Assembly: GCF_013085545.1 (NCBI RefSeq)
Contig: NZ_CP039543.1
Location: forward strand, 2,633,322 to 2,697,321
Direction of reading: 5' to 3'
DNA: 64,000 nt
From: Oceanidesulfovibrio marinus
GTDB taxonomy: Bacteria; Desulfobacterota; Desulfovibrionia; Desulfovibrionales; Desulfovibrionaceae
The notes beneath the pieces were generated by a model. It did no database searches and was not told the DNA's origin. It saw only the letters and a list, made by a program, of their open reading frames with translations. Shown one piece after another: positions 4,718 to 32,800 of the stretch. Positions within the stretch are counted from its first letter, which is position 1; every line of letters starts with the position of its first letter. The translations under genes and the position numbers were made by a program.

Positions 4718-5727
4718 GCCACGCGACTCTCATCGACCTCTGGTTCGTGCTGACCGCGGGGCTGCTTTTCCTGCACATCGGCCTCGGCAGCATCGATCTT
4801 GGCGTCTGCACGCTCTCGCTGATCACGCCGGACAAGGACTCCGAAACCCTGCTCGGCTCCATCGACACCATCTGGCACGCCAACCAGACCTGGCTGGTGG
4901 TGCTCGGCGGCACGCTCTTCGGCGCGTTCCCCGTTCTATACAGCGAGGTCCTTTCCCGGCTCTACGGGCTCGTCATCGTGCTGCTGGCCATGCTGGCCAT
5001 GCGCGGCATCGGCCTGGAGTACCGCCACCATGCGGCCAACCCCAGGCGCTCGCGCCTTTTTGCCGGATGCGGCGCATTGGCGGCCATCGTGGCCGAGGGA
5101 CTTATTCTGGGAACCCTCATCGTGGGCGCTCCGGCGCCGGGCTCCAGGCTGGCCGGCCTGTCCGCTTTCGTCCGGCCCGAGGTCCTGCCGACCGTGCTCT
5201 TCCTTATCTTCACCGCTCTGCTCACCGCCGGCGCCTGGCTGCTGAAGGAGCTGGACGACGAACACCCATTGCGCCCCATGGCCAGACGGTCGATGATGGC
5301 CGGCGCGGTCGGCGTTCTGGTCTTTGCCACGTACATCTGCCGGCAGATGCTGGCGGCGTGGCGAATCGACGCCGCGGAGCTGCACGGGTTATACATGTCC
5401 CTCGCCGCCGTAGCCTTTGCGGCCCTGGTGCTGATGACGGTCAGCATGCAGAAAAGCTGGCGGGGCTCCCAGGTTCCCTGGGCTCTCGTTGTTGTGGGCG
5501 TGGCCCTGGCCGCCTGCGCGGGCACGGCCCGCTTCGCCATGCAGACGCCCGGCGCTGCGGACTTCGCGGCATCCAGGGAGGCGCTGGTGTTTCTCACCTG
5601 GACCTCGGCCCTGTTGCTGCCGCCGCTGATCGCGTTCCAGATTTTTCAGTACCGCCTGCAACGGCGCGGCACGGATGTCTCCACGACAGAATCGGGCGGG
5701 CAGGAACCCTCGGCCGGTCCGGAGTAG
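4714..5727 (+). CDS. cydB: Cytochrome bd ubiquinol oxidase subunit II
   Basis: 337 aa polytopic membrane protein. Start overlaps cydA stop (ATGA). N-terminus (DLWFVLTAGLLFLHIGLGSIDLG...WHANQTWLVVLGG) matches CydB. Confidence 0.8.
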   Translation: MSHATLIDLWFVLTAGLLFLHIGLGSIDLGVCTLSLITPDKDSETLLGSIDTIWHANQTWLVVLGGTLFGAFPVLYSEVLSRLYGLVIVLLAMLAMRGIGLEYRHHAANPRRSRLFAGCGALAAIVAEGLILGTLIVGAPAPGSRLAGLSAFVRPEVLPTVLFLIFTALLTAGAWLLKELDDEHPLRPMARRSMMAGAVGVLVFATYICRQMLAAWRIDAAELHGLYMSLAAVAFAALVLMTVSMQKSWRGSQVPWALVVVGVALAACAGTARFAMQTPGAADFAASREALVFLTWTSALLLPPLIAFQIFQYRLQRRGTDVSTTESGGQEPSAGPE

Positions 5728-5748
5728 CCCGACCCGACAGATTGGAAA

Positions 5749-6321
5749 GTGATGATGAACACGAAGCTGAAACGTCTCACCGAGATGCTGAAAGACGCCG
5801 GGGAGGGCACGCGCGGGCTGATCTACGGATATGGCGAGACCCTGCGCGCCATGTTTACCCACCCCATCACGATTCAGTATCCGGAGGAGAGAAAGAAGCT
5901 GCCGCCACGGTCGCGGGCGCACATCATCCTCACCCGCACGCCCGACGGCGATGAGCGTTGCGTGGCCTGCTATCTGTGTTCCGCCGCCTGCCCGGTGAGC
6001 TGCATCTCCATGCAGGCGGGCACGCGCGAGGACGGACGGCGCTACGCCCCGTGGTTCCGGATCAACTTCGCCCGCTGCATCTACTGTGGGCTGTGCGAGG
6101 AGGCGTGCCCCACGCTGGCCATCCAGCTTACGCCCAACTACGAGTACTGCGCCGACTCCCCGCTCAAGCTTGTAGCCGAGAAGGAAGACCTGCTGGTGAA
6201 CCACGGCGGCAAGAACAACGAGTACGACTTCTACAAGCACGCCGGGGTCGAGGAGAAGTACCCCCGCGGCGAACATCCCGGTGAGAAATCGCCCGTGGAC
6301 TACAAGAGCAACCTGCCATGA
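5749..6321 (+). CDS. nuoI: NADH-quinone oxidoreductase subunit I (2x[4Fe-4S] ferredoxin)
   Basis: 190 aa with two CxxCxxCxxxCP motifs (CVACYLCSAACP, CIYCGLCEEACP) and a NuoI-type C-terminus (KEDLLV...KS). Starts 21 nt after cydB. Confidence 0.9.
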   Translation: MMMNTKLKRLTEMLKDAGEGTRGLIYGYGETLRAMFTHPITIQYPEERKKLPPRSRAHIILTRTPDGDERCVACYLCSAACPVSCISMQAGTREDGRRYAPWFRINFARCIYCGLCEEACPTLAIQLTPNYEYCADSPLKLVAEKEDLLVNHGGKNNEYDFYKHAGVEEKYPRGEHPGEKSPVDYKSNLP

Positions 6322-6938
6322 GCATTTACGCAATGCTGTTCTACGCCCTCGCAGCCATCACGCTCGGCTGCACGATCATGGCGGTCACGCGCCGTGTGCT
6401 CGTGCACGCCGTGGTCTGGATGGTGGGCGCGCTCATCGGCACGGCGCTCATCTTCCTGCTCCTAGGCGCGCCCCTCTTGGCCGGGTTCGAGGTCATCATC
6501 TACGCCGGGGCCATCATGGTGCTCTTCCTCTTCGCCATCATGCTCATGGCGCAGGACCCCAGCGAGTCCAAGCAGGTGGAGGCCATGGCCAAGTGGCGCA
6601 TCTTCCGCCGGCTGTTCTGGCCCGCGGTCTACGGCCTCGTAGGGCTTTTGGCCTGCATGGCCTTGATCAGCTTCGACCCTGCCAACACGCCCATGCTCAA
6701 GCTGGGCAGGGTCTCGCCCCATGCACTGGGCGCGTGGGTCTTCGGCAATGCCTGGCCCGCGGTGGAGGCCGTCTCCCTGCTCCTTTTCGTTGCCCTGGCC
6801 GGCGCGCGCTACCTGGGGCTGCCGCTCGTTCGGGCCGACCAGCCCAGACACTGGGGCGAGAGCCTGAAGGCTGAGGCTGCCGGCAATCCGGAACCCGAGC
6901 CGGTGAAGCCCCAGTCGGCAGAGGAGGACGGGCAATGA
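6318..6938 (+). CDS. nuoJ: NADH-quinone oxidoreductase subunit J
   Basis: 206 aa, 5 TM. Operon position between nuoI and nuoK; start overlaps nuoI stop. Confidence 0.85.
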   Translation: MSIYAMLFYALAAITLGCTIMAVTRRVLVHAVVWMVGALIGTALIFLLLGAPLLAGFEVIIYAGAIMVLFLFAIMLMAQDPSESKQVEAMAKWRIFRRLFWPAVYGLVGLLACMALISFDPANTPMLKLGRVSPHALGAWVFGNAWPAVEAVSLLLFVALAGARYLGLPLVRADQPRHWGESLKAEAAGNPEPEPVKPQSAEEDGQ

Positions 6939-7240
6939 TCGTTCCCATGGAGCATGTGCTGATCTTCGCGGCGGTGCTTTTCCTCATCGGGCTGGTCACC
7001 GTGGTGGCCCGGCGCAGCCTGATCATGATCCTGCTCGGCGTGGAGGTGATGCTCAACGCGGCCGGCGTGGCCTTTGTAGCCGGAGCGCTGCGCTGGTGGG
7101 ACATCACGGGCCAGGGCATGGTGCTGTTCATCATGGCCGCGGCCGCGGCCGAGATCGCCGTGGGCCTGACCCTGGTGTTCAACATCTGGTGGCGGACCAA
7201 GAACCTCAACCCCGACGCCCTGACCAGGCTCAAAGGATGA
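6935..7240 (+). CDS. nuoK: NADH-quinone oxidoreductase subunit K
   Basis: 101 aa, 3 TM, conserved LLGVEVMLNAAGVAFVA...AAAEIAVGL motif. ATGA overlap with nuoJ. Confidence 0.9.
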   Translation: MIVPMEHVLIFAAVLFLIGLVTVVARRSLIMILLGVEVMLNAAGVAFVAGALRWWDITGQGMVLFIMAAAAAEIAVGLTLVFNIWWRTKNLNPDALTRLKG

Positions 7241-9170: not shown

Positions 9171-10643
9171 GTGCACGTATTCCCGCTGCTCACCACCCTC
9201 ATCTTCCTGCCGCTTTTTGGCGGCATGGCCGGTCTGTTCTTCCGCCGGAACCCTGCGCAGGCCCGGTTCATCTGCCTGTTGACCGCGCTCATCGAGCTTG
9301 TGCTGGTCCTGGGCGTCATCCCGCTTTACGGCTGGTCCGGGCCCATGCAGCTTACCGAGCGATTCGCCTGGATACCCTCGCTCCACGTGCAGTACTCGCT
9401 GGGCATGGACGGCCTGAGCTACCTGCTCGTCCTGCTCACGGCCCTGCTCGTGGTGCTGGGCATGCTCACCTCATGGAAGGAGATCCAGGAGGACACGGCG
9501 GCGTTCTACACGCTGCTCCTGGCCTCCATGAGCACGGCCGTGGGCGTGTTCCTGGCGCGCGATCTGCTGCTCTTCTACTTTTTCTGGGAAGCGCAGCTCA
9601 TTCCCATGTTTTTCATCATCGGCCGCTACGGCCACGAGAAACGGCGCTACGCCGCGCTCAAGTTCTTTGTCTTCAGCATGGTGGGCGGCCTGCCCATGCT
9701 GCTGGCCGTTATCTGGCTGATGATCAACGGTCAGGACATCTCCCTGGCCGCCCTGAGCGCCGTGCCCGTGCAGGGTGCGTTGCAGGTTTACTGCGCCGTG
9801 GCCTTCATGCTGGCCTTTGCCGTGAAAACGCCGCTGTTGCCGGTACACACTTGGCTGCCGGACGCCCACACCCAGGCGCCCACCGCGGGCAGCCTGCTGC
9901 TGGCCGGCGTGCTGCTCAAGACCGGGGCCTACGCCATCCTGCGCTGGGCCCTCCCCCTGTTCCCGGACATACTCGCCGCGGCCGCGCCGTGGCTGGCCGG
10001 ACTGGGACTCGCCGGGCTCTTCTACGCATCGTGGACAGCCCTGGCCCAGCGCGACGCCAAGCGACTGGTGGCGTACTCCAGCGTGGCGCACATGGGGCTG
10101 ATCATCTTCGCCATGTTCGCCCACAACCGCTTGGGGCTTTCCGGCGCTGTGGTGCAGATGGTGAGCCACGCCCTGACCACCGGCGCGCTGTTCGTCATGG
10201 TGGGCATGCTGGCGGAGCGCTTCCACTCCCGCGAGCTGGCGGACTTCGGCGGGTTGTGGAGCACAATGCCCCTGTTCGGCGGATTTTTCATGTTCTTCGC
10301 CGTGGCCTCTGCCGGGCTGCCCGGACTGTCCAACTTCGTGGGCGAGCTGTTCATTATGATCGGCTCGTTCAAGGTCTATCCGGTGGGCGCATCCCTGGCC
10401 TTCTGCGGCATCGTCGTCGGCCTCGCCTACGTGTTGCGGCTGTTGCAGGGAACCGTGCTGGGCGCTCCCGGACGCCTGAGCGGGGGAGACGCCGCGGCCG
10501 CGGCCACCGATCTCGACGGTCGCGAAATACTGATTCTCTCGGTGTTGGCCCTGGCCGTCCTGCTGGTCGGCCTGCATCCGTCGCTGTTGCTCAAGCTCGT
10601 GCAGCAGCCATTGGACGCCCTGGCGGCGCATTGGCCCGGATAA
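9171..10643 (+). CDS. nuoM: NADH-quinone oxidoreductase subunit M
   Basis: 490 aa antiporter-like subunit (WLPDAHTQAPTAGSLLLAGVLLK). Confidence 0.9.
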   Translation: MHVFPLLTTLIFLPLFGGMAGLFFRRNPAQARFICLLTALIELVLVLGVIPLYGWSGPMQLTERFAWIPSLHVQYSLGMDGLSYLLVLLTALLVVLGMLTSWKEIQEDTAAFYTLLLASMSTAVGVFLARDLLLFYFFWEAQLIPMFFIIGRYGHEKRRYAALKFFVFSMVGGLPMLLAVIWLMINGQDISLAALSAVPVQGALQVYCAVAFMLAFAVKTPLLPVHTWLPDAHTQAPTAGSLLLAGVLLKTGAYAILRWALPLFPDILAAAAPWLAGLGLAGLFYASWTALAQRDAKRLVAYSSVAHMGLIIFAMFAHNRLGLSGAVVQMVSHALTTGALFVMVGMLAERFHSRELADFGGLWSTMPLFGGFFMFFAVASAGLPGLSNFVGELFIMIGSFKVYPVGASLAFCGIVVGLAYVLRLLQGTVLGAPGRLSGGDAAAAATDLDGREILILSVLALAVLLVGLHPSLLLKLVQQPLDALAAHWPG

Positions 10644-22642: not shown

Positions 22643-22982
22643 CCGCGCCGTCCTGCCGCGGTATTGCCTTCCATATCGGAGTTATTGCCCGGCTCCGCCC
22701 TGCTCCCGTTGTCTTCATTGTTGAGCGTTGAATGCTGTTCGATTCGCTTCCTCAACAGATGAATCGTTGGTTCGTGCCATGCAGCGATCCAAGGCCGACT
22801 GCCTCCAGCCCGCTCTCCCTCTCAGCTGACGTACTACCCAGTTGCTTCTTCTCTTCAGGAACGGCCCGGCTCCAGCTGATCTGCCGCGCCCTTGACCCAC
22901 TGCATTGTTTTCTGTAGTTCGTAACAACAGATTTAATTACGTAACACTCTCCACGCAATTCTTGTCCAAAATGGAGAAGCGT

Positions 22983-24110
22983 ATGGCCTTGCCCCGCAAT
23001 TTCCGTCTACGCCTTGCCGCGGCGCTCTGCGCCGTGGGTGCGCTCCTGCTCCTCGCCGCCGTGCCCGCCCATGCGCGTACCATCACGGACGCCCTTGGCA
23101 GAACGGTCGACATCCCGGACGACGTGCAACATGTCATCTGCTCCGGCTCCGGCTGCCTCCGGCTGCTCACCTACCTGGGCGCGCAGGACATGATCGTGGC
23201 CGTGGACGACATCGAGGTCCGCCGCCGGCAGTTCGACGCCCGGCCATACGCCCTGGCCAACCCGCAGTTCAAGACCATGTCCATATTCGGAGAGTTCCGC
23301 GGCCACGACAACCCGGAGCTGATCCTCACGCTGGAGCCGCAGCCCCAGGTCATCCTCAAAACCTACACCACGAGCATGGGCTATGACCCGGACGAGCTCC
23401 AGGCCAAGACCGGCATCCCCGTGGTGGTGCTCAACTACGGCGACCTCGGCGTACAGCGGCCGCAGTTCTACGAAGCGCTGCGGATCATGGCCGGCGTCGT
23501 GGGCAGGCAGGACCGCGCCGAGGAGGTTATCGCGTACTTTGATTCGCACATCGCGGACCTGGAGCAGCGCACGGCCGACATTCCGGAGGACCAGCGGCCC
23601 TCGGTCTTCATCGGCGGCGTGGCCCACCGCGGGCCGCACGGCTACCAGTCCACAGAGCCCATCTACCCGCCCTTCCTGTTCGTGCACGCCCGGAACCTGG
23701 CCGGCGAAGGCGCCGGCAAGAAAATGCAGCACTCCGACGTAGCCAAGGAAAAAATCGTGGAGTGGAATCCGGACGTGCTCTTCCTGGATTTGGCCACGCT
23801 CCAGCTCGGCGACGAGGCCGGCGGCCTCTTCGAGCTGCGCACCGACCCGGCCTACCAGACCCTCACGGCCGTGCAGCAGGGCAAGGTCTACGGCCTGCTG
23901 CCGTACAACTGGTATTCGAAAAACTACGGCTCCATCCTGGCCAATGCCTACTTCATCGGCAAGGTGCTGTACCCCGAGAAGTTCAAGGATGTGGAGCCGG
24001 CCGCCCAGGCCGACGCCATCTACACCTTCCTGGTGGGCAAGCCCGTGTTCCCGGACATGAACGCCATGTTCGGCGGCCTGGCCTTCGAGCCCGTGCCCCT
24101 CACGCAATAG
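22983..24110 (+). CDS. Iron-chelate/cobalamin-type ABC transporter substrate-binding protein (FecB/BtuF/TroA class)
   Basis: Start moved to ATG 22983 (GGAGAAG SD 5 nt upstream; MALPRNFRLRLAAALCAVGALLLLAAVPAHA signal peptide). Class III PBP fold by similarity. Confidence 0.75.
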   Translation: MALPRNFRLRLAAALCAVGALLLLAAVPAHARTITDALGRTVDIPDDVQHVICSGSGCLRLLTYLGAQDMIVAVDDIEVRRRQFDARPYALANPQFKTMSIFGEFRGHDNPELILTLEPQPQVILKTYTTSMGYDPDELQAKTGIPVVVLNYGDLGVQRPQFYEALRIMAGVVGRQDRAEEVIAYFDSHIADLEQRTADIPEDQRPSVFIGGVAHRGPHGYQSTEPIYPPFLFVHARNLAGEGAGKKMQHSDVAKEKIVEWNPDVLFLDLATLQLGDEAGGLFELRTDPAYQTLTAVQQGKVYGLLPYNWYSKNYGSILANAYFIGKVLYPEKFKDVEPAAQADAIYTFLVGKPVFPDMNAMFGGLAFEPVPLTQ

Positions 24111-24118
24111 GACGCTCC

Positions 24119-25192
24119 ATGCACTTTGCCGATGGCGAGGTTCCTGCGGCGTACCGCCGCCACATCGGGCTCAAGGTCGTATTCATCGGCGGCTGCTGCA
24201 CCGCGCTGGCACTGGCATTGGTCACGGCCATCTCCCTGGGCGCGGCCCAGGTGCCCATGCTCGACGTGGCCAAAAGCCTGCTGGGCATGGCCACCACGGC
24301 GCGGTTCGACGCCATTGTCTGGAACATCCGCCTGCCACAGGCCCTGGCCAGCATCGTGGCCGGAGCCGGCCTGTCCGTGTCCGGCGCGGCCATGCAGTCC
24401 ATCCTGCGCAACCCGTTGGGCTCGCCGTTCACCCTGGGCATTTCCCACGCCGCGGCATTCGGCGCGGCCTTTTCCGTGATGATCCTGGGCGGCGGCATGA
24501 TGACCTCCTCCATGGTCAGCTCGATAACCATCACCAATCCCCTGGCCACCACCGCCGCGGCCTTCGCGTTCAGCCTGTCCGCAGCCGGTGTGATCATCGC
24601 GGTCTCCCGCCTGCGCGGGGCAACGCCGGAGGTCATGGTGCTCACGGGCGTGGCCCTGGGCGCGCTGTTCACAGCCGGCACCATGTTCCTGCAGTTCTTT
24701 GCGGACGACGTGCAGCTCGCGGCCATCGTGTTCTGGACCTTTGGAGACACGGCGCGGGCCTCCTGGCAGGAGCTCGGCATCATCACCGCTGCCACGGCCG
24801 CCGCCTCCATCTACTTTCTGGCCCACGGCTGGAGCTACAACGCCATCGACGCCGGCGACGAAACGGCCAAGGGCCTGGGGGTGCGCGTGGAGCGCGTCCG
24901 CATGGTCGGCATGCTCATCGCCTCGGCGCTCACGGCCGTGATTATCTCCTTTCTCGGCGTCATCGGCTTCGTGGGGCTGGTGGTGCCGCACATGGTCCGC
25001 CGCGTCATCGGCTCGGACCACCGCTTTCTGCTGCCGGCCTCCATTGTGGGCGGCGGGCTGCTCCTGCTCGTTTCGGACACGGCCGCGCGGCTTATCCTTG
25101 CGCCCCACGTGCTGCCCGTGTCCGTGCTCACGGCGTTCATGGGCGCGCCTGTCTTCATCTGGCTGATCATTCGAGGCCGCGGAGGACGATGA
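24119..25192 (+). CDS. FecCD/BtuC-family ABC transporter permease
   Basis: 357 aa, about 9-10 TM. Start re-assigned to ATG 24119; the track ORF starts at 23762 in-frame through the preceding gene. Confidence 0.85.
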   Translation: MHFADGEVPAAYRRHIGLKVVFIGGCCTALALALVTAISLGAAQVPMLDVAKSLLGMATTARFDAIVWNIRLPQALASIVAGAGLSVSGAAMQSILRNPLGSPFTLGISHAAAFGAAFSVMILGGGMMTSSMVSSITITNPLATTAAAFAFSLSAAGVIIAVSRLRGATPEVMVLTGVALGALFTAGTMFLQFFADDVQLAAIVFWTFGDTARASWQELGIITAATAAASIYFLAHGWSYNAIDAGDETAKGLGVRVERVRMVGMLIASALTAVIISFLGVIGFVGLVVPHMVRRVIGSDHRFLLPASIVGGGLLLLVSDTAARLILAPHVLPVSVLTAFMGAPVFIWLIIRGRGGR

Positions 25193-26004
25193 TGACCAAC
25201 AATCCGCACCACCGGCATATCCATCCGGACGCTATCGCCGGGACCATGCTCCTGGAGATCGACGGCCTGACCTTCACCTACAACAGCCACCCGGTGCTGG
25301 ACGGCGTCTCGTTCCAGGTGGCGGCCGGCGAGCTGCTCGCCATCCTCGGCCCCAACGGGGTGGGCAAGACCACGCTGCTCAAGTGCGTCAATTCCATCCA
25401 CAGGGCCAGCGGCGGCGCGATTCTCGTGGACGACCGCAACGTGCTGAAGATGTCCGCCGGCGAGATCGCCAAGGAGATCGGCTACGTGGCGCAACGGTCC
25501 GAGGCTGCGCGGCTCACCGTGTTCGACGCCGTGCTCATGGGCCGCAAGCCGCACATCCGTTGGCGCGTCTCGGACAACGACCTCAAGATCGTAGACGCGG
25601 CCCTGCGCCGGCTGCACATGGACCACCTCTGCCTGCGCTACATCGACGAGCTCAGCGGCGGCGAGCTGCAAAAGGTCTGCATCGCCCGCGCCCTGGTGCA
25701 GGAGCCGCGCCTGCTGCTCCTGGACGAGCCCACCAGCTCCCTGGACCTGCGCAACCAGATGGAGATCATGACCATGATCCGCCGCGTGGTGGACGAGCAC
25801 GGCGTGGCCGCGGTCATGACCATGCACGACCTGAACACGGCACTGCGCTTTGCGGACAAGGCCCTGTTCCTCAAGGATGGCGGCGTGCACGCGGCCGTCT
25901 GCCCGCGGGAGCTGACCCCGGAGATCGTGGAAACCGTGTACGGGCTGCCCGTGGCCGTCCACCACATGGACGGCGGCCCGGTCATCGTGCCGGCGGCGGC
26001 CTGA
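25189..26004 (+). CDS. Iron-chelate/B12-type ABC transporter ATP-binding protein
   Basis: 271 aa. Walker A GPNGVGKTT, signature LSGGELQKV, Walker B LLLLDEPTSSLD. Overlaps permease stop. Confidence 0.85.
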   Translation: MMTNNPHHRHIHPDAIAGTMLLEIDGLTFTYNSHPVLDGVSFQVAAGELLAILGPNGVGKTTLLKCVNSIHRASGGAILVDDRNVLKMSAGEIAKEIGYVAQRSEAARLTVFDAVLMGRKPHIRWRVSDNDLKIVDAALRRLHMDHLCLRYIDELSGGELQKVCIARALVQEPRLLLLDEPTSSLDLRNQMEIMTMIRRVVDEHGVAAVMTMHDLNTALRFADKALFLKDGGVHAAVCPRELTPEIVETVYGLPVAVHHMDGGPVIVPAAA

Positions 26005-26031
26005 ACCTCAACCATACGACAGGTGAATCGC

Positions 26032-26643
26032 ATGCCTTGCACCATCGACCAGCAGATCATCGACGAGATCATCTCCTTCCACGGCCACGACTGCCCGGGC
26101 CTGACCATCGGCATCCGCGCCGCCGAGCTGGCGCTGCTCAAGCTCGGCTCCCCGGACGAGACCGAGTTGGTCGCCGTGGTGGAAACCGACATGTGCGGCG
26201 TGGACGCCATCCAATTCCTCACCAGCTGCACCTACGGCAAGGGGAACTTGATCCACAAGGATTACGGCAAGATGGCCTTCAACTTCTACGACCGCAACAC
26301 GGGCGACGGGTTCCGCGCCCTGATGCGGCCGGACCTGCGTAACGACGTAGACGAGGAGCACACCGAGCTGGAGCGCAAACTCGCCGAGGGCACGGCCACC
26401 GAAGCGGACAAGGCGCGCAACGCCGAGCTCTACAAGCTGCTCCAGCAGCGCTTCCTCGATCTGCCCCTGGAGGAGATGTTCGAGGTCATGGAGCCAAAGG
26501 AGTCGGTCCCCTCGCCAGCGCAGGTCCTGGAGAGCCTGGTCTGCGAGTCCTGCGGCGAGAAGACCATGGAGTCCCGCACGCGGCGGTTCGGCGGCAAGAC
26601 CCTGTGCATCCCGTGCTTCAACGCCGTGGAGCAGAAGGTCTAG
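26032..26643 (+). CDS. FmdE/FwdE-family protein with C-terminal zinc ribbon
   Basis: About 203 aa. HGHDCPG motif and C-terminal CESCGEK...CIPCFN four-cysteine ribbon, characteristic of the FmdE family. Confidence 0.7.
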   Translation: MPCTIDQQIIDEIISFHGHDCPGLTIGIRAAELALLKLGSPDETELVAVVETDMCGVDAIQFLTSCTYGKGNLIHKDYGKMAFNFYDRNTGDGFRALMRPDLRNDVDEEHTELERKLAEGTATEADKARNAELYKLLQQRFLDLPLEEMFEVMEPKESVPSPAQVLESLVCESCGEKTMESRTRRFGGKTLCIPCFNAVEQKV

Positions 26644-26707
26644 CAACGGCGGTACTTTCCGAGGTCCGGCTCTCCCCCCGCCTGCCGGCAGTCATCGCAA
26701 AGCAAAA

Positions 26708-26733
26708 GGGCCGGGGATGTGCATCCTCGGCCC
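26708..26733. terminator. Bidirectional rho-independent terminator between convergent fmdE-like (plus) and ABC-ATPase (minus) genes
   Basis: GGGCCGGGGA-TGTGCA-TCCTCGGCCC stem-loop (one G-U wobble) followed by TTGTTTCT. Confidence 0.5.
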
Positions 26734-26783
26734 TTGTTTCTCTGTACTTGTTGCGGCTTGCGCCGGCACTCTTCGCGCGTGCC

Positions 26784-27554
26784 CTACTCCAGCGGCTCCC
26801 CTTTTCTGAGCCGTGAACGGATGCCCGCGTACTCCTCCTCCATCTGTTCCAGCCTGGCAAGAAGCTGCTCTTCCGCCTCGGAGCGCATCAGTACGTCGCG
26901 GACGGCGCCGTTCTCGAACACGAGGCGCCGGTTGGCGGACAGGGCCAGCACTGGGTCATGCGTGGCGATGACCACGATCTTGTCGCTCTTCACCAGAAGA
27001 TCCAGGGCGCGGCTCTTGTCCACGCCGGCGTTCTCGATCTCGTCGATGAGCAGGATGGGCGACCAGCTGAGCAATGCCGCGTCCGCAATCATCAGGGAGC
27101 GGGACTGCCCGCCCGAGAGCTGCGTGAGCTGCACGTCCGGGTGGAAGGGCTCGCCGGCCAGGTCGTTGGCCGCCTGGATCACCGTGTCGGCCGTAGCCTC
27201 GGGGTCGTCCGCCTCCCGGCTTTCGGCGTGGGTGCGGATGAAGTCGCGCACGCCCATGTCCAACACAAAGTTCATGTTCTGGCTGAGCTGGGCCACCAGC
27301 CGACCCTGGAGCTCGAAGCGGCGTTCCGGGTCGGGCTTGGCGTCGTCCAGCAGCACGCAGCGGTTGGACGGCGTGTCGCGGTCGGCCAGGGACTCGATGT
27401 CGTAGAGGAAGCGGCTCTTGCCCGATCCCGTGGGACCGAGCAGCGCCGTGATCTCACCCGGGGAGAAGACCACGTCCATGGTCTCCGCCCTGCCGGACTT
27501 GTCGTGCCCCGAAGTGACGGTCACGCTCTGCAGCGTCAGGATATCACTGCTCAT
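26784..27554 (-). CDS. Stand-alone ABC-type ATPase (no cognate permease in the operon)
   Basis: 256 aa. Walker A GPTGSGKS, signature LSGGQSRSL, Walker B ILLIDEIEN, H-loop ATHD. Acidic coiled-coil C-terminal tail. Start overlaps the upstream gene's stop by 11 nt. Confidence 0.75.
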   Translation of the reverse strand: MSSDILTLQSVTVTSGHDKSGRAETMDVVFSPGEITALLGPTGSGKSRFLYDIESLADRDTPSNRCVLLDDAKPDPERRFELQGRLVAQLSQNMNFVLDMGVRDFIRTHAESREADDPEATADTVIQAANDLAGEPFHPDVQLTQLSGGQSRSLMIADAALLSWSPILLIDEIENAGVDKSRALDLLVKSDKIVVIATHDPVLALSANRRLVFENGAVRDVLMRSEAEEQLLARLEQMEEEYAGIRSRLRKGEPLE

Positions 27555-28245
27555 GCGCGCCTCCGAAGGTCACCTTTTTCACGTTGCCCTTCTGGTAGCG
27601 GCTGCCAATGCGGGTTTCGCTGAGGCAGTAGGAGCAGACCGCCGCGGGCATGGGGAAGCGCAGGCGCATGTCCGTGACCTTCTCGATGGACGGCGCCATG
27701 GCCAGGATGGTAGCCAGGTCCCGGCAGCCCTGCCCGGTCAGGCCGTTGATGTGCCTGATTATGGCCTTGGAGTTCATCTGGCGGATGCGGTGGCGGTAGA
27801 CCTCGCGCTCGGCCTGGGAGACCAGGTCTCCTTTGGTCACCAGCACCAGGTCGGCCATGCGCAGCATGGGACCGATCTTCTTGGGCGCCTCGATGCCCAT
27901 GAGGTTGTCGATGACGCACAGACCCAGCACGCCGCGCAGATGCGGCGAACAGCGGTTGCACAGCCCGGCCGTCTCGATGACGCAGCACTCGGCCCCGGCG
28001 TCCTTGGCCCAGGCAAAGGCTTCCTCCAGGTTGGTGGCGAAGAAGTGGTCCGGGCACAAACCGCCGGAGAGCACGGCAGTGGCCGGAATGCCGGCGGCCG
28101 CGTAGATGTCCGAATCCCTGGTCTGCAGGCAGTCGAACTTGACCACGGCGCAGGAAACGCCCTGGCGCATCAGCTCGGCGCAGGCCTTGGTCAGAATCGA
28201 TGTCTTGCCGCACGAGGGCGGCCCGGCCACGGTCACGAGTCGCAC
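27544..28245 (-). CDS. G3E-family P-loop GTPase, HypB/UreG-like metallochaperone candidate
   Basis: Start assigned to GTG 28245 (AGGAGA SD 4 nt upstream; overlaps upstream stop by 13 nt). P-loop GPPSCGKTS at the very N-terminus, ETAGLCNRCSP (HypB ENVGNLVCP-like cysteine motif), and TKGD as an NKxD variant. Confidence 0.6.
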   Translation of the reverse strand: MRLVTVAGPPSCGKTSILTKACAELMRQGVSCAVVKFDCLQTRDSDIYAAAGIPATAVLSGGLCPDHFFATNLEEAFAWAKDAGAECCVIETAGLCNRCSPHLRGVLGLCVIDNLMGIEAPKKIGPMLRMADLVLVTKGDLVSQAEREVYRHRIRQMNSKAIIRHINGLTGQGCRDLATILAMAPSIEKVTDMRLRFPMPAAVCSYCLSETRIGSRYQKGNVKKVTFGGAHEQ

Positions 28246-29258
28246 GGCGTCTCCTGAACCAGGCGGCGGAAGGTGGCGTTCAGCTCGTCGCGCACCACCG
28301 TAATGTCGTTGCCGCGGATGAAGTCCCAGCCCACCCACTTGATGCGCGCATCCGGGGCGAGGTTGTCTGGTGCGGGGCCGCCCAGGGGCAGGAACCAGCG
28401 GGCGCTCGGAATTTCGCCGAAACCCTTGGTGAAGAACTCCAGCAGCTTGTCCAGCCTGGGCCGGGCCGAGCGTTTGGCCAGGAAATAGATGGGGCTGGCG
28501 GCCGTGCCGTCTTCCGGCCAGATCACCTTCATGTGCTCGGGCTGCAGGGATGTTTCCGCAAAGAAGTACGGCAGGATGTAGATGCCGCCGCCCAGCGCCG
28601 ATCCGCCGGACTTGCCCATGCGCGAGGAGTGCATGAGGCCGTGCGCGTTGGCGGCCAGCGCCTCGATGCCCTCCATGCCGAACTCCTTGTAGATGCTCAT
28701 CAGCGCGGCGTCGGCCATGTCGTCGCCGTCTCCGCACATGTTGATCTGCCCGCGGTAGCGCGGATCGAGCAGGTCCTCCCATGTTCGCGGCGGCGGGGTA
28801 TCGCCCAGGCGCTTCATGTCCGCCATGAAGATGTACGGTGTGAGCGCGTAGACCGTGTAACGGCCTTCCGGGTCCACAATGCCGGCCTGCTCGTGCAGGG
28901 GGTGCACCTTCTCGGGCAGCACGGCTTCGAACACGCCGGTGTTGACGAAGCGGTCGACAAAGCCTTTGCGGAAGAAATCACCGAAGCCGATGGAGGCGAT
29001 GATGTCCGGCAGCCTGTCCGGGTCGGTTTCCAGATGCAGGGGATCGTACGGGTCCACCGAGGTGCACCCCATGGGAATATGGATGCTAACGGGGTCGCCG
29101 GCGTCCTCATACGCCTGGAGCACGGCGTCCAGCCGCTCCTTGACCGCCAGCTTGACCGGACACGGGGAGTACAGGAGCAGATCGAGCTCGCCGGGGTCCG
29201 GGGTGTCCTGCTGGCCCGACTGGATGACCGAGGCCATGAGCTGGTCGAGTGTCTTCAT
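28233..29258 (-). CDS. Periplasmic-binding-protein-fold (type II SBP-like) protein without signal peptide
   Basis: Start re-assigned to ATG 29258 (AAGGAAAG SD). 341 aa with a soluble N-terminus (MKTLDQLMASVIQSGQQD). Overall resemblance to small solute/metal ABC substrate-binding proteins but apparently cytoplasmic. Function unknown. Confidence 0.5.
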   Translation of the reverse strand: MKTLDQLMASVIQSGQQDTPDPGELDLLLYSPCPVKLAVKERLDAVLQAYEDAGDPVSIHIPMGCTSVDPYDPLHLETDPDRLPDIIASIGFGDFFRKGFVDRFVNTGVFEAVLPEKVHPLHEQAGIVDPEGRYTVYALTPYIFMADMKRLGDTPPPRTWEDLLDPRYRGQINMCGDGDDMADAALMSIYKEFGMEGIEALAANAHGLMHSSRMGKSGGSALGGGIYILPYFFAETSLQPEHMKVIWPEDGTAASPIYFLAKRSARPRLDKLLEFFTKGFGEIPSARWFLPLGGPAPDNLAPDARIKWVGWDFIRGNDITVVRDELNATFRRLVQETPCDS

Positions 29259-29564
29259 TGCTTTCCTTTTTGTGACAGGGGCGTCTACAATTTTGAAACA
29301 GTTCAGCGCGGTGCGCCGGGATTTCCCGCTGCACCGGCGTACATCTTTCAGTTCGAGCAAGGCCCATGCCAGCACCGTTGCCCGATTCCAGACCGCTGGG
29401 GCATGTATCCGAAGCATTGCCCGCATTTTGTGTTGGGGAATACGTATGCCCCTCGTGACGCTTTTTCAAGGGAAAGCGACATACTCAACACGCACCGCCC
29501 AAAAACAAACGGCTGAAGAGCAGCGCTCCCCAGCCGTCCAGACCACAAAGCGGCGTGGTTGTGT

Positions 29565-30044
29565 TTACGAGTCCTTGCCGGGCGTCGGGTTGATCTTGCC
29601 GACCATCGACTCCACGGCGATGCGCACCACGGCCGTACGCCCCAGAACCTTCTCGTCGTACTCGCCGACGGGGCCGTCGTAGTGCGCCATGATGGCGTCC
29701 AGCCCCTTGGCCTTCTCCGCCGGATCGGTCAGCAACGCAGCTCTGCCGAAACCGCTCACGGACTTGAAATGTGTGGTAAAGCCGCAGGCCTTGTCCGCGC
29801 GGACGATCGCGTGTTCAGCAATGGCCACAAAGCTGACCATACCGTTCTTCTGCACGCACTCGACCTTGCGACCGTCCGGCGCGCTGTGGAAGTAGATGGC
29901 TCCATCCTTGTAACCGAAGTTCACCGCCACGACGTACGGCTGCTCGCCGTCCCAGAGCCCGAGCTGAATGACCTCGCACCGCAGCAGCAGCTCCTCCACC
30001 TGGGCCTTATCCTCGATTGCCCGCTCCTTCTTGCGCATGCTCAT
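29565..30044 (-). CDS. Pyridoxamine 5'-phosphate oxidase-like FMN-binding split-barrel protein
   Basis: 159 aa. PNPOx/NimA-like family by sequence pattern (..VVAVNFGYKDGAIYFHSA..). Confidence 0.7.
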   Translation of the reverse strand: MSMRKKERAIEDKAQVEELLLRCEVIQLGLWDGEQPYVVAVNFGYKDGAIYFHSAPDGRKVECVQKNGMVSFVAIAEHAIVRADKACGFTTHFKSVSGFGRAALLTDPAEKAKGLDAIMAHYDGPVGEYDEKVLGRTAVVRIAVESMVGKINPTPGKDS

Positions 30045-30385: not shown

Positions 30386-31033
30386 ATGCTGACAGGGTTC
30401 ATCCAAAGCCTCGGGGGCAGCTTGCCGTATCTCATCATCCTTGCTGTCAGTTTTCTCGTCTTTCTGACCATGACGTTTCTCTCCTTTGGCGGGGAGGACG
30501 CCGACGGCTCCCACCTGGACAGCGGCGCCGGCGGGGACACGGCCCATGGCGACGCGCCCGATGACATGGGTGACGTGGGCGACGACCTCAGCCACGGCGA
30601 CAGTCACGATGGCCATTTCCGCGGTCTGGTCCGCTACCTCTCCTTCCGCAACCTCATCAACTACCTCATGGGGTTCGGCGCTGCCGGCTTCCTGGCCATG
30701 CAGGCCGGACTGCACCCCTTCTGGGCCGCCAACTGCGCCGTGGCGGGCGGAGCCATCGCCGCCTTTGTCATGTACAAGCTCATGGCCGCGCTCTACTCGC
30801 TCTCCGAAGAGCAGGAGGACGACATGAGCGACGCCGCCGGCCAGATCGGCCGCGTCTACATCGAGATCGGCGCAAATCGCTCCCGCCGGGGCAAGGTGCT
30901 GGTGACCACCAAGAGCGCCCAGCGCGAGTTCGCGGCACTCACCGACAACCCGTCGCCCCTGCCGATCCACGCTTCCGTGCGGATCACAGCCTGCGAGGGG
31001 GACTGCCTGGTGGTGGAGCCGCTGGCCGAGTAG
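30386..31033 (+). CDS. NfeD-like membrane protein (flotillin partner, YuaF/YqiJ-type)
   Basis: 215 aa. N-terminal TM, acidic His/Asp-rich linker, further TMs and a C-terminal OB-fold-like beta region. Immediately upstream of a flotillin gene, the typical NfeD-flotillin operon. Confidence 0.6.
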   Translation: MLTGFIQSLGGSLPYLIILAVSFLVFLTMTFLSFGGEDADGSHLDSGAGGDTAHGDAPDDMGDVGDDLSHGDSHDGHFRGLVRYLSFRNLINYLMGFGAAGFLAMQAGLHPFWAANCAVAGGAIAAFVMYKLMAALYSLSEEQEDDMSDAAGQIGRVYIEIGANRSRRGKVLVTTKSAQREFAALTDNPSPLPIHASVRITACEGDCLVVEPLAE

Positions 31034-31201
31034 GCCGAGCCGATTTCGCAACATACATTGTGTAATATCTTTCGGCGGTGCGGACCACGCCCGCCTGCCG
31101 GACCATTGTCCAAGGAGCGCCGCACCTCGACCCTTTGAACGCCGCATCCCAATGAAAGTACATCCGCACCGACACTGCACCCCTTCTCCCAGGAGCTCTT
31201 C

Positions 31202-32800
31202 ATGGAATTCGGATCGGTATTCGTACAGCTCTCGCTCTTTGTCGCGCTGCTTGTGGTCATCGGATTTCTGTCCTTCATCACGCTCATCAAGTTCTACAAA
31301 CGCTGCCCGCCGGACAAGATCCTCGTGGTCTTCGGCCGGGTGGGCCGCATTGCCGGCGGCCAGGCACGCAGCGCCAAGTGCGTGCACGGCGGCGCCACCT
31401 TCGTCATTCCGGTGCTCCAGGACTACCAGTTCCTGGACCTGACGCCGCTGACCATAGACATCGATCTGAAGAGCGCGCTGTCCAAGGAGAACATCCGGGT
31501 CAACGCGCCGTCCACCTTCACCGTGGGCATATCCTCCTCCCCCGAGATCATGAACAACGCGGCCGAGCGCCTGCTGGGCCTGTCCATGGCCGAGGTGGAG
31601 CAGACCGCCTCGGACATCATCTTCGGCCAGTTCCGCGCCACCATCGCGACCATGAAGATCGAGGAGATCAACGCCGACCGCGAGAAGTTCCAGCAGACGG
31701 TGATGGACAACGTGGAGGACGAGCTGGGAAAGATCGGCCTGCGGCTGATCAACGTGAACATCAAGGACGTCACAGACGAGAGCAACTACCTGGCCGCACT
31801 GGGCAAACGCGCCGCGGCAGAGGCCACCAACAAGGCCAAGATCGAGGTGGCCGAGCAGGAGCGGAACGGCTCCGTGGGCGAGGCCAAGGCCGTGAAGGAG
31901 CGCGATATCCTGGTGGCGGAGGCGCATCGCGATACGAGGACAGCCACGGCCCAGGCAGAGGCAGAAGCCGTAAAGGGCGAGCGTGAGGCCAAAGCCATCG
32001 AGGCGGATGCCGAAAGCGCCCTGCGCGTGCGCCAGGCCTCGGCGGCGGCACTCGCCGTGAAGGGTGAGCGCGATGCGTTGCAGATCGAGGCTGCGGCGGA
32101 CAGCGACTTGCGCATCAAGAAGGCCGAGGTGGACGCCAATGCGGCCAAGGCCGAGCGCATCCGCATGGCCGAGGCTGCCAAGGAAGCCCTGGAGTCCGAG
32201 AAGCTCACGGAGCTGGCGCGCAAGGATCGCGAAATTGCGGCCAAGCTGGCCGACACCGTGCCGGACGCCGAGGCGGCCAAGCAGCAGCTCATCATCGAGG
32301 CCGAAGCGCAGAAGTCGCAGCGGGTCATTCAGGCCGAGGCGGAAAAGGAAGCAGCCCAACGCCGCGGCGAAGGTGAAGGCCTGGAGATGCGCGCACGCAT
32401 GGAGAACGAGGCCAAGGGCCTGGAAGCGCTGCTCGGCGCGCAGGCCGAGGGTCTGGGCAAGATCGTGGCCGCGGCCGGCGGCGACGCAGGCAAGGCCTTT
32501 ATGCTGATGATGGCGGACAAGATGCCGGAGCTCTTCAAAATGCAAACCGAGGCGCTGCAGAACCTACAGATCGACAAGGTCCTGGTCATGGACGGCGGCT
32601 CCGGCGATGGCGTCTCCAACTTTGTGCAGGGATTCGCCCAGGCCCTGCCCTTTGCCCACGAGATCGCCGAGCTCGGCGGCATCAAGCTGCCCGGGCTGTT
32701 CATGGGCGAGCAGAAGGCCGAACCGCCGCAGCAGCCGGCCGTTCCCGAAGTTGCTGAAGAGAACGACCCGGAGGACGCCGGGGACGAGAGCGAATCCTAG
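31202..32800 (+). CDS. Flotillin-like SPFH/Band-7 protein (FloT/YuaG/YqiK-type)
   Basis: 532 aa. N-terminal TM, SPFH domain, long Ala/Glu-rich coiled-coil (EA repeats), acidic C-terminus. Confidence 0.85.
   Translation: MEFGSVFVQLSLFVALLVVIGFLSFITLIKFYKRCPPDKILVVFGRVGRIAGGQARSAKCVHGGATFVIPVLQDYQFLDLTPLTIDIDLKSALSKENIRVNAPSTFTVGISSSPEIMNNAAERLLGLSMAEVEQTASDIIFGQFRATIATMKIEEINADREKFQQTVMDNVEDELGKIGLRLINVNIKDVTDESNYLAALGKRAAAEATNKAKIEVAEQERNGSVGEAKAVKERDILVAEAHRDTRTATAQAEAEAVKGEREAKAIEADAESALRVRQASAAALAVKGERDALQIEAAADSDLRIKKAEVDANAAKAERIRMAEAAKEALESEKLTELARKDREIAAKLADTVPDAEAAKQQLIIEAEAQKSQRVIQAEAEKEAAQRRGEGEGLEMRARMENEAKGLEALLGAQAEGLGKIVAAAGGDAGKAFMLMMADKMPELFKMQTEALQNLQIDKVLVMDGGSGDGVSNFVQGFAQALPFAHEIAELGGIKLPGLFMGEQKAEPPQQPAVPEVAEENDPEDAGDESES

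Follow-up and report, generated by a model that had tools for sequence, protein, structure and literature searches.

A 64-kb stretch of DNA from Oceanidesulfovibrio marinus (contig NZ_CP039543.1, positions 2,633,322 to 2,697,321), referred to below as the window, contains three adjacent minus-strand genes (the trio) that encode a binding protein of the SBP_bac_6 fold, a G3E GTPase, and a soluble ATP-binding cassette (ABC) ATPase. The three proteins come from known superfamilies, their combination is not described, and their gene order is kept far beyond chance. We cautiously favor the view that the trio is a cytoplasmic, nucleotide-driven module that hands over a thiophilic metal or a metal cofactor after its chelate-type import. 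This view is based on the inseparability of the three genes, the UreG-like site of the GTPase, the Cys and His residues in the putative cleft of the binding protein, the soluble ABC motor, and the neighboring genes for import, metallochaperone helpers, and metal regulators.

Organization and expression signals of the operon

The trio genes run colinearly from 29258 to 26784 in the order binding protein, GTPase, ABC ATPase, with overlaps of 13 nt (28245-28233) and 11 nt (27554-27544). All the features listed in an earlier reading of the sequence alone (the original prediction), which had described three translationally coupled minus-strand genes with overlaps of these lengths, are present in the DNA. 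The genes and their putative signals are the following.

29258..28233, minus strand: binding protein gene (341 aa; SBP_bac_6 fold; predicted to be cytoplasmic; PF13343, E = 3.9e-61)
28245..27544, minus strand: G3E GTPase gene (233 aa; GTG start; PF02492, E = 7.5e-13)
27554..26784, minus strand: soluble ABC ATPase gene (256 aa; PF00005, E = 4.7e-13; no membrane domain)
29371-29356, minus strand: sigma-54-type promoter TGGCATGGGCCTTGCT, 113 nt upstream of the binding protein gene
26706..26735, strandless: GC-rich, terminator-like hairpin of 13 pairs between the convergent ATPase and FmdE genes

The ATG of the binding protein gene is preceded by AAAGGAAAG, and the start codon of the GTPase gene is fixed by the 100% identity of its product to an O. 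marinus protein of the same length. The promoter is the sole match to TGGCAYN5TTGCW in the 64 kb of the window, with 0.16 expected by chance. Its core, GG-N10-GC, is kept in the aligned upstream regions of five related loci, and TGGCAY-N5-TTGCW was also found 110 to 221 nt upstream of the first trio gene in 14 other loci of the close branch (defined below). The hairpin on the other side is likely a two-way terminator. Since the trio has its own sigma-54-type promoter upstream and a hairpin downstream, it appears to be a self-contained transcription unit, and the arrangement of its reading frames supports a translationally coupled operon.

Related loci (cited here by L numbers) carry a palindrome, ACAATTTTG-N9/10-CAAAATTGT, between the sigma-54 promoter and the start codon (L013, L015 ~6930-6965), of which the window has only the right half, CAAAATTGTAG (29285-29295, minus strand). 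This palindrome could be an operator for some regulator or a hairpin of the 5' untranslated region. Upstream of the trio promoter lies a minus-strand gene for a Nim/PNPOx-like flavin protein (29565-30044), which matches the NimABCDEF family weakly (83 bits against a cutoff of 260) and has a terminator-like hairpin of its own (29540-29506); the trio promoter comes after that hairpin.

Conservation and spread of the trio

Since the broad alignment of the binding protein was too diverse for a genome scan, the GTPase was used as the probe. With two GTPase peptide patterns, at least 537 confirmed relatives were obtained from a collection holding one genome per species, and a metagenome scan gave 571. 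All three genes were found in the same order by tblastn in 86 of the 88 loci fetched, the exceptions being a contig that starts inside the GTPase gene and a locus with the GTPase only (L077). For neighbor statistics, loci with at least 4 kb on both sides were collapsed at 90% GTPase identity, which left 21 groups of a close branch and 29 of a distant one; the trio turned out to be complete in 21/21 and 27 to 28 of 29 groups, respectively. The overlapping stop and start codons are also kept in other genomes. The word "orphan" used for the operon in the original prediction is thus not appropriate, and the conserved synteny that it proposed to look for among Desulfovibrionales was found there and beyond, in several phyla.

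The close branch, with the architecture of the window, comprises Desulfovibrionales, Desulfobacterales, Syntrophobacteraceae, and Desulfocapsaceae. The distant branch comprises Geobacter, Desulfuromonadales, Pelobacter, Deferribacter, Acetobacterium, Eubacterium yurii, Anoxynatronum, and Bengtsoniella, as well as Fibrobacteraceae and bins of Myxococcota and Bacteroidota. The trio is present in most of the Desulfovibrionaceae genomes fetched, including that of Desulfovibrio desulfuricans, and also in acetogens, metal reducers, and syntrophs. The GTPase is 73 to 90% identical across Desulfovibrionales and Desulfobacterales and is the better conserved of the first two proteins; close homologues of the binding protein (54 to 99% identical) occur throughout Desulfovibrionaceae and in other Thermodesulfobacteriota. 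Identity to the distant branch is 55 to 59% for the GTPase (copies of Firmicutes and Geobacter), about 50% for the ATPase, and 26 to 40% for the binding protein. Two loci show variant arrangements: in one (L160, 5508-7991) the gene immediately ahead of the GTPase encodes a Peripla_BP_2 protein, the binding protein being displaced, and in the other (L090, 2499-4763) two tandem binding protein paralogues are followed by FecCD and an ATPase.

The profile searches that had been suggested matched the three proteins to SBP_bac_6, PF02492, and PF00005, and no NCBIfam model reached its cutoff for any of them. A sequence search of solved structures (PDB) likewise returned nothing at family level for any trio protein. 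We found no description of the trio in the literature on Desulfovibrio CobW and binding proteins, DUF1858, FmdE with transporters, P47K, G3E surveys, or TsaA/TonB, nor any mention of trio-type genes in the transposon paper on Desulfovibrio vulgaris Hildenborough with its supplements or in the sigma-54 regulome paper; the Pelobacter genome paper had no bearing on the trio.

A G3E GTPase of the HypB/UreG type

The P-loop (G8PPSCGKT15), the ExxG motif (E91TAG94), and T137KGD140 of the GTPase are invariant in both branches, as are C96-x-x-C99 just after Walker B, C110, and C204-S-Y-C207. They agree with the G3E consensus of GxxxxGK[ST], ExxG instead of DxxG, and [NST]KxD. Both hallmarks pointed out in the original prediction, a P-loop at residue 8 and a HypB-like ETAGLCNRCSP motif (residues 91-101), are present. 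In a profile alignment, C64-P65-D66-H67, located between Walker A and Walker B, was aligned to the nickel-binding C-P-H motif of Klebsiella UreG, with C64-P65 falling on CPH. The model of the G domain matched HypB and UreG structures with template modeling (TM) scores of 0.69 to 0.74, the top Foldseek matches being HypB (4lps, 2wsm, and 2hf8) and UreG (4hi0 and 5xkt), and a sequence search of the PDB gave UreG and HypB at 1e-5 to 1e-6. Sequence and fold alike mark it as a genuine G3E GTPase of the HypB/UreG type.

It is probably not a bona fide paralogue of either family (such a paralogue with a known partner would have spoken against the original prediction): it scored 40.6 bits against the HypB model TIGR00073 (cutoff, 121.2) and 28.6 bits against the UreG model TIGR00101 (cutoff, 204.2). 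The earlier statement that the operon corresponds to no known maturation set stands. The GTPase has no N-terminal metal-binding extension, and of the COG0523/CobW features it has neither a CobW_C match in Pfam nor CxCC, with CPDH and CNRC instead. In the monomer, disorder is predicted for the CPDH loop and for the 34 C-terminal residues, although their sequence hardly varies, which fits segments that become ordered upon binding of a metal or a partner.

The binding protein is probably cytoplasmic and has a ferric-binding-protein-like fold

No N-terminal hydrophobic segment was detected in the binding protein of the window or in 17 homologues, while a clear one is present in the neighboring FecB-like protein, and no transmembrane-grade segment was found in any of the three trio proteins. 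The earlier description of a solute-binding-protein fold without a signal peptide is thereby confirmed. Among the 77 long representative sequences scanned, 65, from the distant branch, have a DUF1858 domain at the N terminus, and two are fused to an S-adenosylmethionine (SAM) methyltransferase domain. A cytoplasmic location of the binding protein is supported, because it lacks a signal peptide and its relatives are fused to cytoplasmic DUF1858 or SAM methyltransferase domains.

The AlphaFold model of the protein (predicted local distance difference test score, 91.7) has the two-lobed fold of periplasmic binding proteins, with FutA1, FbpA, and AfuA as its nearest matches (TM score, ~0.6). The top 50 structural matches were of the FbpA, FutA, AfuA, and PotD types, with no ModA-type entry among them. 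In Pfam the protein of the window matches SBP_bac_6 only, SBP_bac_11 being touched weakly by a few distant relatives, and a PDB search with the single sequence gave marginal hits (E = 0.08 to 0.9).

Throughout the close branch (18 homologues), the binding protein has four invariant residues: Cys33, Cys65, Cys175, and His210. In distant-branch sequences, the positions equivalent to Cys33 and His210 show at least 90% conservation, and Cys33 also reaches at least 90% in a mixed alignment of both branches. In a profile alignment to YfuA, the Cys175-GDGDD loop falls on the anion-binding loop, and His210-Ser-Ser falls on the next strand-helix junction of the binding site. Cys33, Cys65, the Cys175-GDGDD loop, and His210 would occupy the cleft positions that bind iron and anion in ferric-binding proteins.

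The ABC ATPase has no membrane partner

The ATPase has all the motifs of its class (Walker A GPTGSGKS, Q-loop AQLSQ, signature LSGGQ, Walker B ILLIDE, and H-loop ATHD), and these are conserved in six orthologues. Its closest solved relative is EcfA1, only at E = 4e-10, and its best NCBIfam matches are ordinary transporter ATPases at ~40 bits. No permease is encoded in the operon, and the protein has no transmembrane-grade segment, in agreement with the original prediction of a soluble ATPase with intact motifs and no transmembrane partner. A FecCD permease nearby, in the two loci checked (the window and L095), has its own canonical ATPase; the importer ATPase of L095 scored 113.9 bits against PF00005, versus 50.4 bits for the trio ATPase of the window.

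In the distant branch the ATPase has an N-terminal extension of ~75 residues. In one 542-aa protein of Nitratidesulfovibrio liaohensis (P0400), the GTPase and the ABC ATPase are joined through a low-complexity linker, which could be either a natural fusion or a sequencing frameshift. Similar fusions considered in L071 and L078 were rejected, the two proteins lying there in different frames.

Importers, FmdE, and methyltransferases recur beside the trio

The operon convergent on the trio in the window encodes FecB, FecCD, an ATPase, and FmdE, all with Pfam matches (Peripla_BP_2, FecCD, ABC_tran, and FmdE), as had been read from the sequence before.

22983..26004, plus strand: type II ABC importer, probable partner (Peripla_BP_2 protein with a signal peptide, FecCD permease, and its own ATPase)
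26023..26643, plus strand: FmdE family protein, probable partner (PF02663 and a C-terminal zinc ribbon), at the end of the importer operon

Importers of this kind adjoin the trio in L014, L007, L070/81/82, and L074/87 and in 16 metagenome loci. In the distant branch, about 30% of the groups adjoin a FecB/FecCD-type importer with its own canonical ATPase; among the 29 groups, the genes counted were those for a FecB-like binding protein (9 groups), a FecCD permease (8), a SAM methyltransferase (6), ModB (6), ModE/Mop (5), ModA (4), a small HypA-like zinc-ribbon protein (5), a SlyD-like FKBP (3), and a TsaA/TrmO_N-like protein (3). In the 21 close-branch groups, FmdE was found in 3, FecB and FecCD in 2, and sigma-54 activators in 3. 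Since only two to three of these 21 groups carry FecBCD or FmdE, the link to import is strongest in the distant branch. The importer and FmdE of the window are probably functional partners of the trio and not bystanders, judging from the distant-branch groups that adjoin such importers and from others that adjoin FmdE or a methyltransferase. The claim that the operon is not a recognizable transporter can accordingly be kept in part: the importers have their own ATPases and the trio has no permease, but the trio is not independent of transport, since importer neighbors recur.

Long clusters (L095 and L108) have the order FecCD, ATPase, TonB-dependent receptor, methyltransferase, FecB, trio, TonB. 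FmdE immediately precedes the trio in L042, L058, and L063, in the latter two as a divergent FmdE-methyltransferase pair. An ArsR-type regulator also occurs among the neighbors. In Geobacter-type loci the trio lies between an upstream aldehyde:ferredoxin oxidoreductase (AOR) operon controlled by a molybdenum cofactor (Moco) riboswitch and a downstream ModE-ModABC(D) set, and the AOR operon also encodes a MoaD/ThiS-like protein and a "nitrogenase-associated" protein (TIGR01616). TOBE/Mop proteins, ModBC, or split ModE parts flank the trio in three metagenome lineages (L099, L100, and L153), and a NifX-DUF1858 protein is encoded upstream of it in L084. In D. desulfuricans-like genomes, hypD and hypE are convergent to the trio and an Nramp gene lies upstream; this adjacency was rejected as a functional clue, as it is reduced to one group after the collapse at 90% GTPase identity.

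Several further observations concern single neighbors. A 161- to 175-aa TsaA/TrmO_N-like SAM-binding protein is encoded beside the trio and FecCD in six loci (L093, L096, L097, L100, L113, and L150; 4686-5171 in L096), and both copies scanned against NCBIfam passed the TrmO cutoff. L096 also has a uroporphyrinogen-III methyltransferase-like gene (5255-6049; 178 bits against a cutoff of 198). In L074, a cobalamin riboswitch (9898-10088, plus strand) lies immediately downstream of the trio and heads a second FecB/FecCD/ATPase operon that ends in a CpaM-like methyltransferase. In Eubacterium yurii (L076, 3765-6387), an AAA_5 ATPase and a 572-aa protein without a family match precede the trio, after a DUF512 radical-SAM gene; this pair may be similar to a metal-insertion motor of the CobS/CobT or NorQ/NorD type.

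The FecB-like protein of the window is weakly similar to the molybdate-binding protein MolA (HI_1472; E = 2e-8), and the papers associated with its PDB relatives deal only with a siderophore binder and with methods. Just upstream of its gene (~22921-22950, plus strand) is a direct repeat, CGTAACA(A/C), with a spacing of 21 bp. A NikR box upstream of the importer operon was considered and dropped, the repeat resembling a half-box but being direct and not inverted. A link to the Sao selenoprotein ABC system or the "CobW-related selenoprotein" was also rejected, as the comparison gave either no family match or only a 38-residue match over the P-loop.

On the far side of the trio, the plus strand of the window (30386-32800) encodes a 215-aa protein without a Pfam match and, after it, a 532-aa Band_7 protein that contains a long coiled region rich in Ala and Glu; beyond the Band_7 gene lie the genes for glyceraldehyde-3-phosphate dehydrogenase and for a GAF-domain protein on the minus strand.

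A proposed hand-over module for metals and its possible mechanism

In the mechanism that we propose, an importer of the TonB/FecBCD type with its own ATPase would carry a metal species into the cytoplasm, where the binding protein, devoid of a signal peptide, would capture it between its two lobes. The GTPase would then dimerize around the metal through the UreG-like C-P-x-H site, possibly assisted by the CxxC of switch II and the CSYC tail, and GTP hydrolysis would let it pass on the metal, either to a client or to a further carrier. A dimer of the ABC ATPase, by its ATP-driven closure, might clamp the binding protein or the GTPase and strip or load the ligand, as soluble ABC modules do in SufBC2D and C-P lyase. 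A SAM methyltransferase, present in many relatives and sometimes fused to the binding protein, may modify the carrier or the ligand. The original prediction of a machine for metal or cofactor delivery is a reasonable reading of the data. The layout of the genes, their conservation, the folds and motifs of their products, the predicted cytoplasmic location of the binding protein, and the recurring neighbors are what the data show; that the proteins form a complex, which way the ligand moves, what the ATPase does, and which metal and client are involved are what we infer.

A number of observations weigh against such a module. The neighbor themes are mixed (molybdenum or tungsten, chelate import, tetrapyrrole methylase, and hydrogenase maturation), and no single client emerges from them. 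Most close-branch loci have no transport or metal gene nearby, FecBCD or FmdE being confined to the few groups mentioned above. Conservation of the third Cys of the binding protein is limited to the close branch, the placement of its Cys and His residues in the cleft comes from a partial alignment to YfuA together with the order of secondary structure elements, and the Cys-His pair could be catalytic instead of metal binding.

Alternative explanations

The alternative that survives best is a special case nested within the hand-over module, in which the trio would be specific for molybdenum or tungsten (Mo/W) and would direct imported molybdate, tungstate, or their thio forms to the assembly of molybdopterin- or nitrogenase-type cofactors; we consider it possible but somewhat unlikely. 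It is favored by the position of the trio between the Moco riboswitch-controlled AOR operon and ModE-ModABC(D) in Geobacter and Desulfuromonadales, by the TOBE/Mop, ModBC, or split ModE parts of the three metagenome lineages, by Mod-type genes near four to six of the 29 distant-branch groups, by the NifX-DUF1858 protein of L084, by the weak likeness of the FecB-like protein to MolA, and by the recurrence of FmdE. The founding members of the FmdE family are encoded in operons of Mo/W formylmethanofuran dehydrogenases, and most members adjoin metal transporter genes (PMC2954224). Against this alternative, Cys and His sites are better suited to cations than to oxyanions, the modeled binding protein resembles ferric-binding proteins and not ModA, and the Mod-linked loci are mostly from one order. 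We also know of no G3E GTPase that handles Mo or W. In D. vulgaris Hildenborough, the 15 genes for chlorate sensitivity via the tungsten enzyme Aor include no trio-type gene, although the presence of a trio in this strain is not established; a cluster lookup placed trio relatives only in Nitratidesulfovibrio species other than Hildenborough.

With the most independent support from genomic context, and chemically unprecedented for this class of GTPases, Mo/W is in our opinion the most interesting metal candidate, if a tentative one. In that version, which would apply to sulfide-rich anaerobes, the trio would work after a chelate importer that is MolABC-like or TonB dependent; Mo or W, possibly as thio species held in the Cys-lined cleft, would be converted or routed to the assembly of molybdopterin- or nitrogenase-type cofactors, with FmdE and the SAM methyltransferase as accessory factors. 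The trio might then be the first dedicated cytoplasmic Mo/W metallochaperone system, with the first G3E GTPase for a group 6 metal, a prospect about which we are rather doubtful.

Alternatively, the trio could process tetrapyrroles or corrinoids, inserting a metal into an imported tetrapyrrole or removing one from it, with the GTPase akin to CobW for the CobNST chelatase. The adjoining importers are of the BtuFCD/heme type, with IsdE, BtuF, and TonB-hemin as the best, though weak, family matches, and Cys and His are typical axial ligands. The uroporphyrinogen-III methyltransferase-like gene of L096, the cobalamin riboswitch and second importer of L074, and the AAA_5 ATPase with the 572-aa protein of E. 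yurii point in the same direction. We nevertheless hold this explanation to be unlikely: a tetrapyrrole methylase occurs in one group only, Rfam detected no riboswitch in the window, nor one immediately upstream of the trio, the 572-aa protein matches no family, and no trio protein has a chelatase-family domain.

Could the GTPase instead be a paralogue of HypB or UreG, supplying hydrogenase or CO dehydrogenase with nickel (or iron) and aided by two extra proteins? Its closest folds and families are indeed HypB and UreG, SlyD-like and HypA-like proteins are among the neighbors, and hypD, hypE, and Nramp adjoin the trio in the D. desulfuricans-like group. However, the GTPase scores far under both family cutoffs, the latter adjacency amounts to a single group, and no structural genes of hydrogenase, urease, or CO dehydrogenase lie beside the trio in any locus examined, which makes this explanation decidedly unlikely.

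An ordinary split ABC importer, with the binding protein exported by a cryptic signal and the ATPase powering a permease encoded elsewhere, was the other outcome that the original prediction had set against its own reading; it would fit the Pfam names (SBP_bac_6 and ABC_tran) and the frequent presence of a permease operon nearby, but is highly improbable given that no homologue checked has a signal peptide, that homologues are fused to cytoplasmic methyltransferase or DUF1858 domains, that the FecCD permease, in the window and the loci checked, is provided with its own canonical ATPase, that within 7 kb a FecCD permease is missing from 19 of the 21 close-branch groups, and that the GTPase cannot be separated from its two partner genes and in one protein is joined to the ATPase.

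Significance

Little is understood of how anaerobes distribute scarce, sulfide-reactive metals within the cell, and few GTPase metallochaperone systems have been characterized. The trio joins three protein classes not known to cooperate and is very strongly conserved yet nameless. Solving it could explain the FmdE proteins, reveal a step that follows the import of metal chelates, and possibly identify a missing route of Mo/W delivery in sulfidic habitats. The close-branch loci offer a clean, small, and genetically tractable target in model Desulfovibrio strains.

Comparison with known systems

The systems closest to the trio GTPase are HypB (with HypA and SlyD) and UreG (with UreDEF), with which it shares the G3E fold, at the TM scores given above, the Walker A, ExxG, and [NT]KxD motifs, a Cys-Pro-(x)-His stretch aligned to the nickel site of UreG, and occasional SlyD-like and HypA-like neighbors. 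It differs from them in falling far below both cutoffs, in its additional invariant CxxC and CSYC, in having no N-terminal metal-binding extension, and in its obligate partners, which are a protein of the binding-protein fold and an ABC ATPase in place of HypA or UreDEF; nor is it attached to genes for hydrogenase or urease.

CobW with the CobNST cobalt chelatase, in which a GTPase metallochaperone is joined by a separate component driven by ATP and by a large partner that binds the substrate, is a functional analogue. The trio GTPase, unlike CobW, has neither CobW_C nor CxCC, the trio ATPase is of the ABC and not the AAA+ class, and the substrate holder has a periplasmic-binding-protein fold and not that of CobN. 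SufC (of SufBC2D) and PhnK/PhnL (of C-P lyase) resemble the trio ATPase in having an intact ABC domain with no membrane partner in the operon and in presumably clamping soluble proteins. The trio ATPase is no member of these families by sequence, its best relatives being transporter ATPases at weak scores, and its partners are unrelated to theirs.

FbpA, FutA, and AfuA, periplasmic binding proteins of cluster D, are the best structural matches of the trio binding protein and belong to the same Pfam family, whereas the trio protein is predicted to be cytoplasmic, is only marginally similar to them in sequence, and has conserved Cys and His residues at the putative cleft. Members of the FbpA family are periplasmic and have His/Glu/Tyr/Tyr ligands; the trio protein departs from them in location, and its ligands were compared through the partial alignment to YfuA only. 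Finally, type II importers such as BtuCDF, FecBCDE, and MolABC, to which the convergent operon of the window belongs, are recurrent genomic partners of the trio; in contrast to it, they have their own binding protein with a signal peptide, their own permease, and their own ATPase, and the trio is not a part of the transporter.

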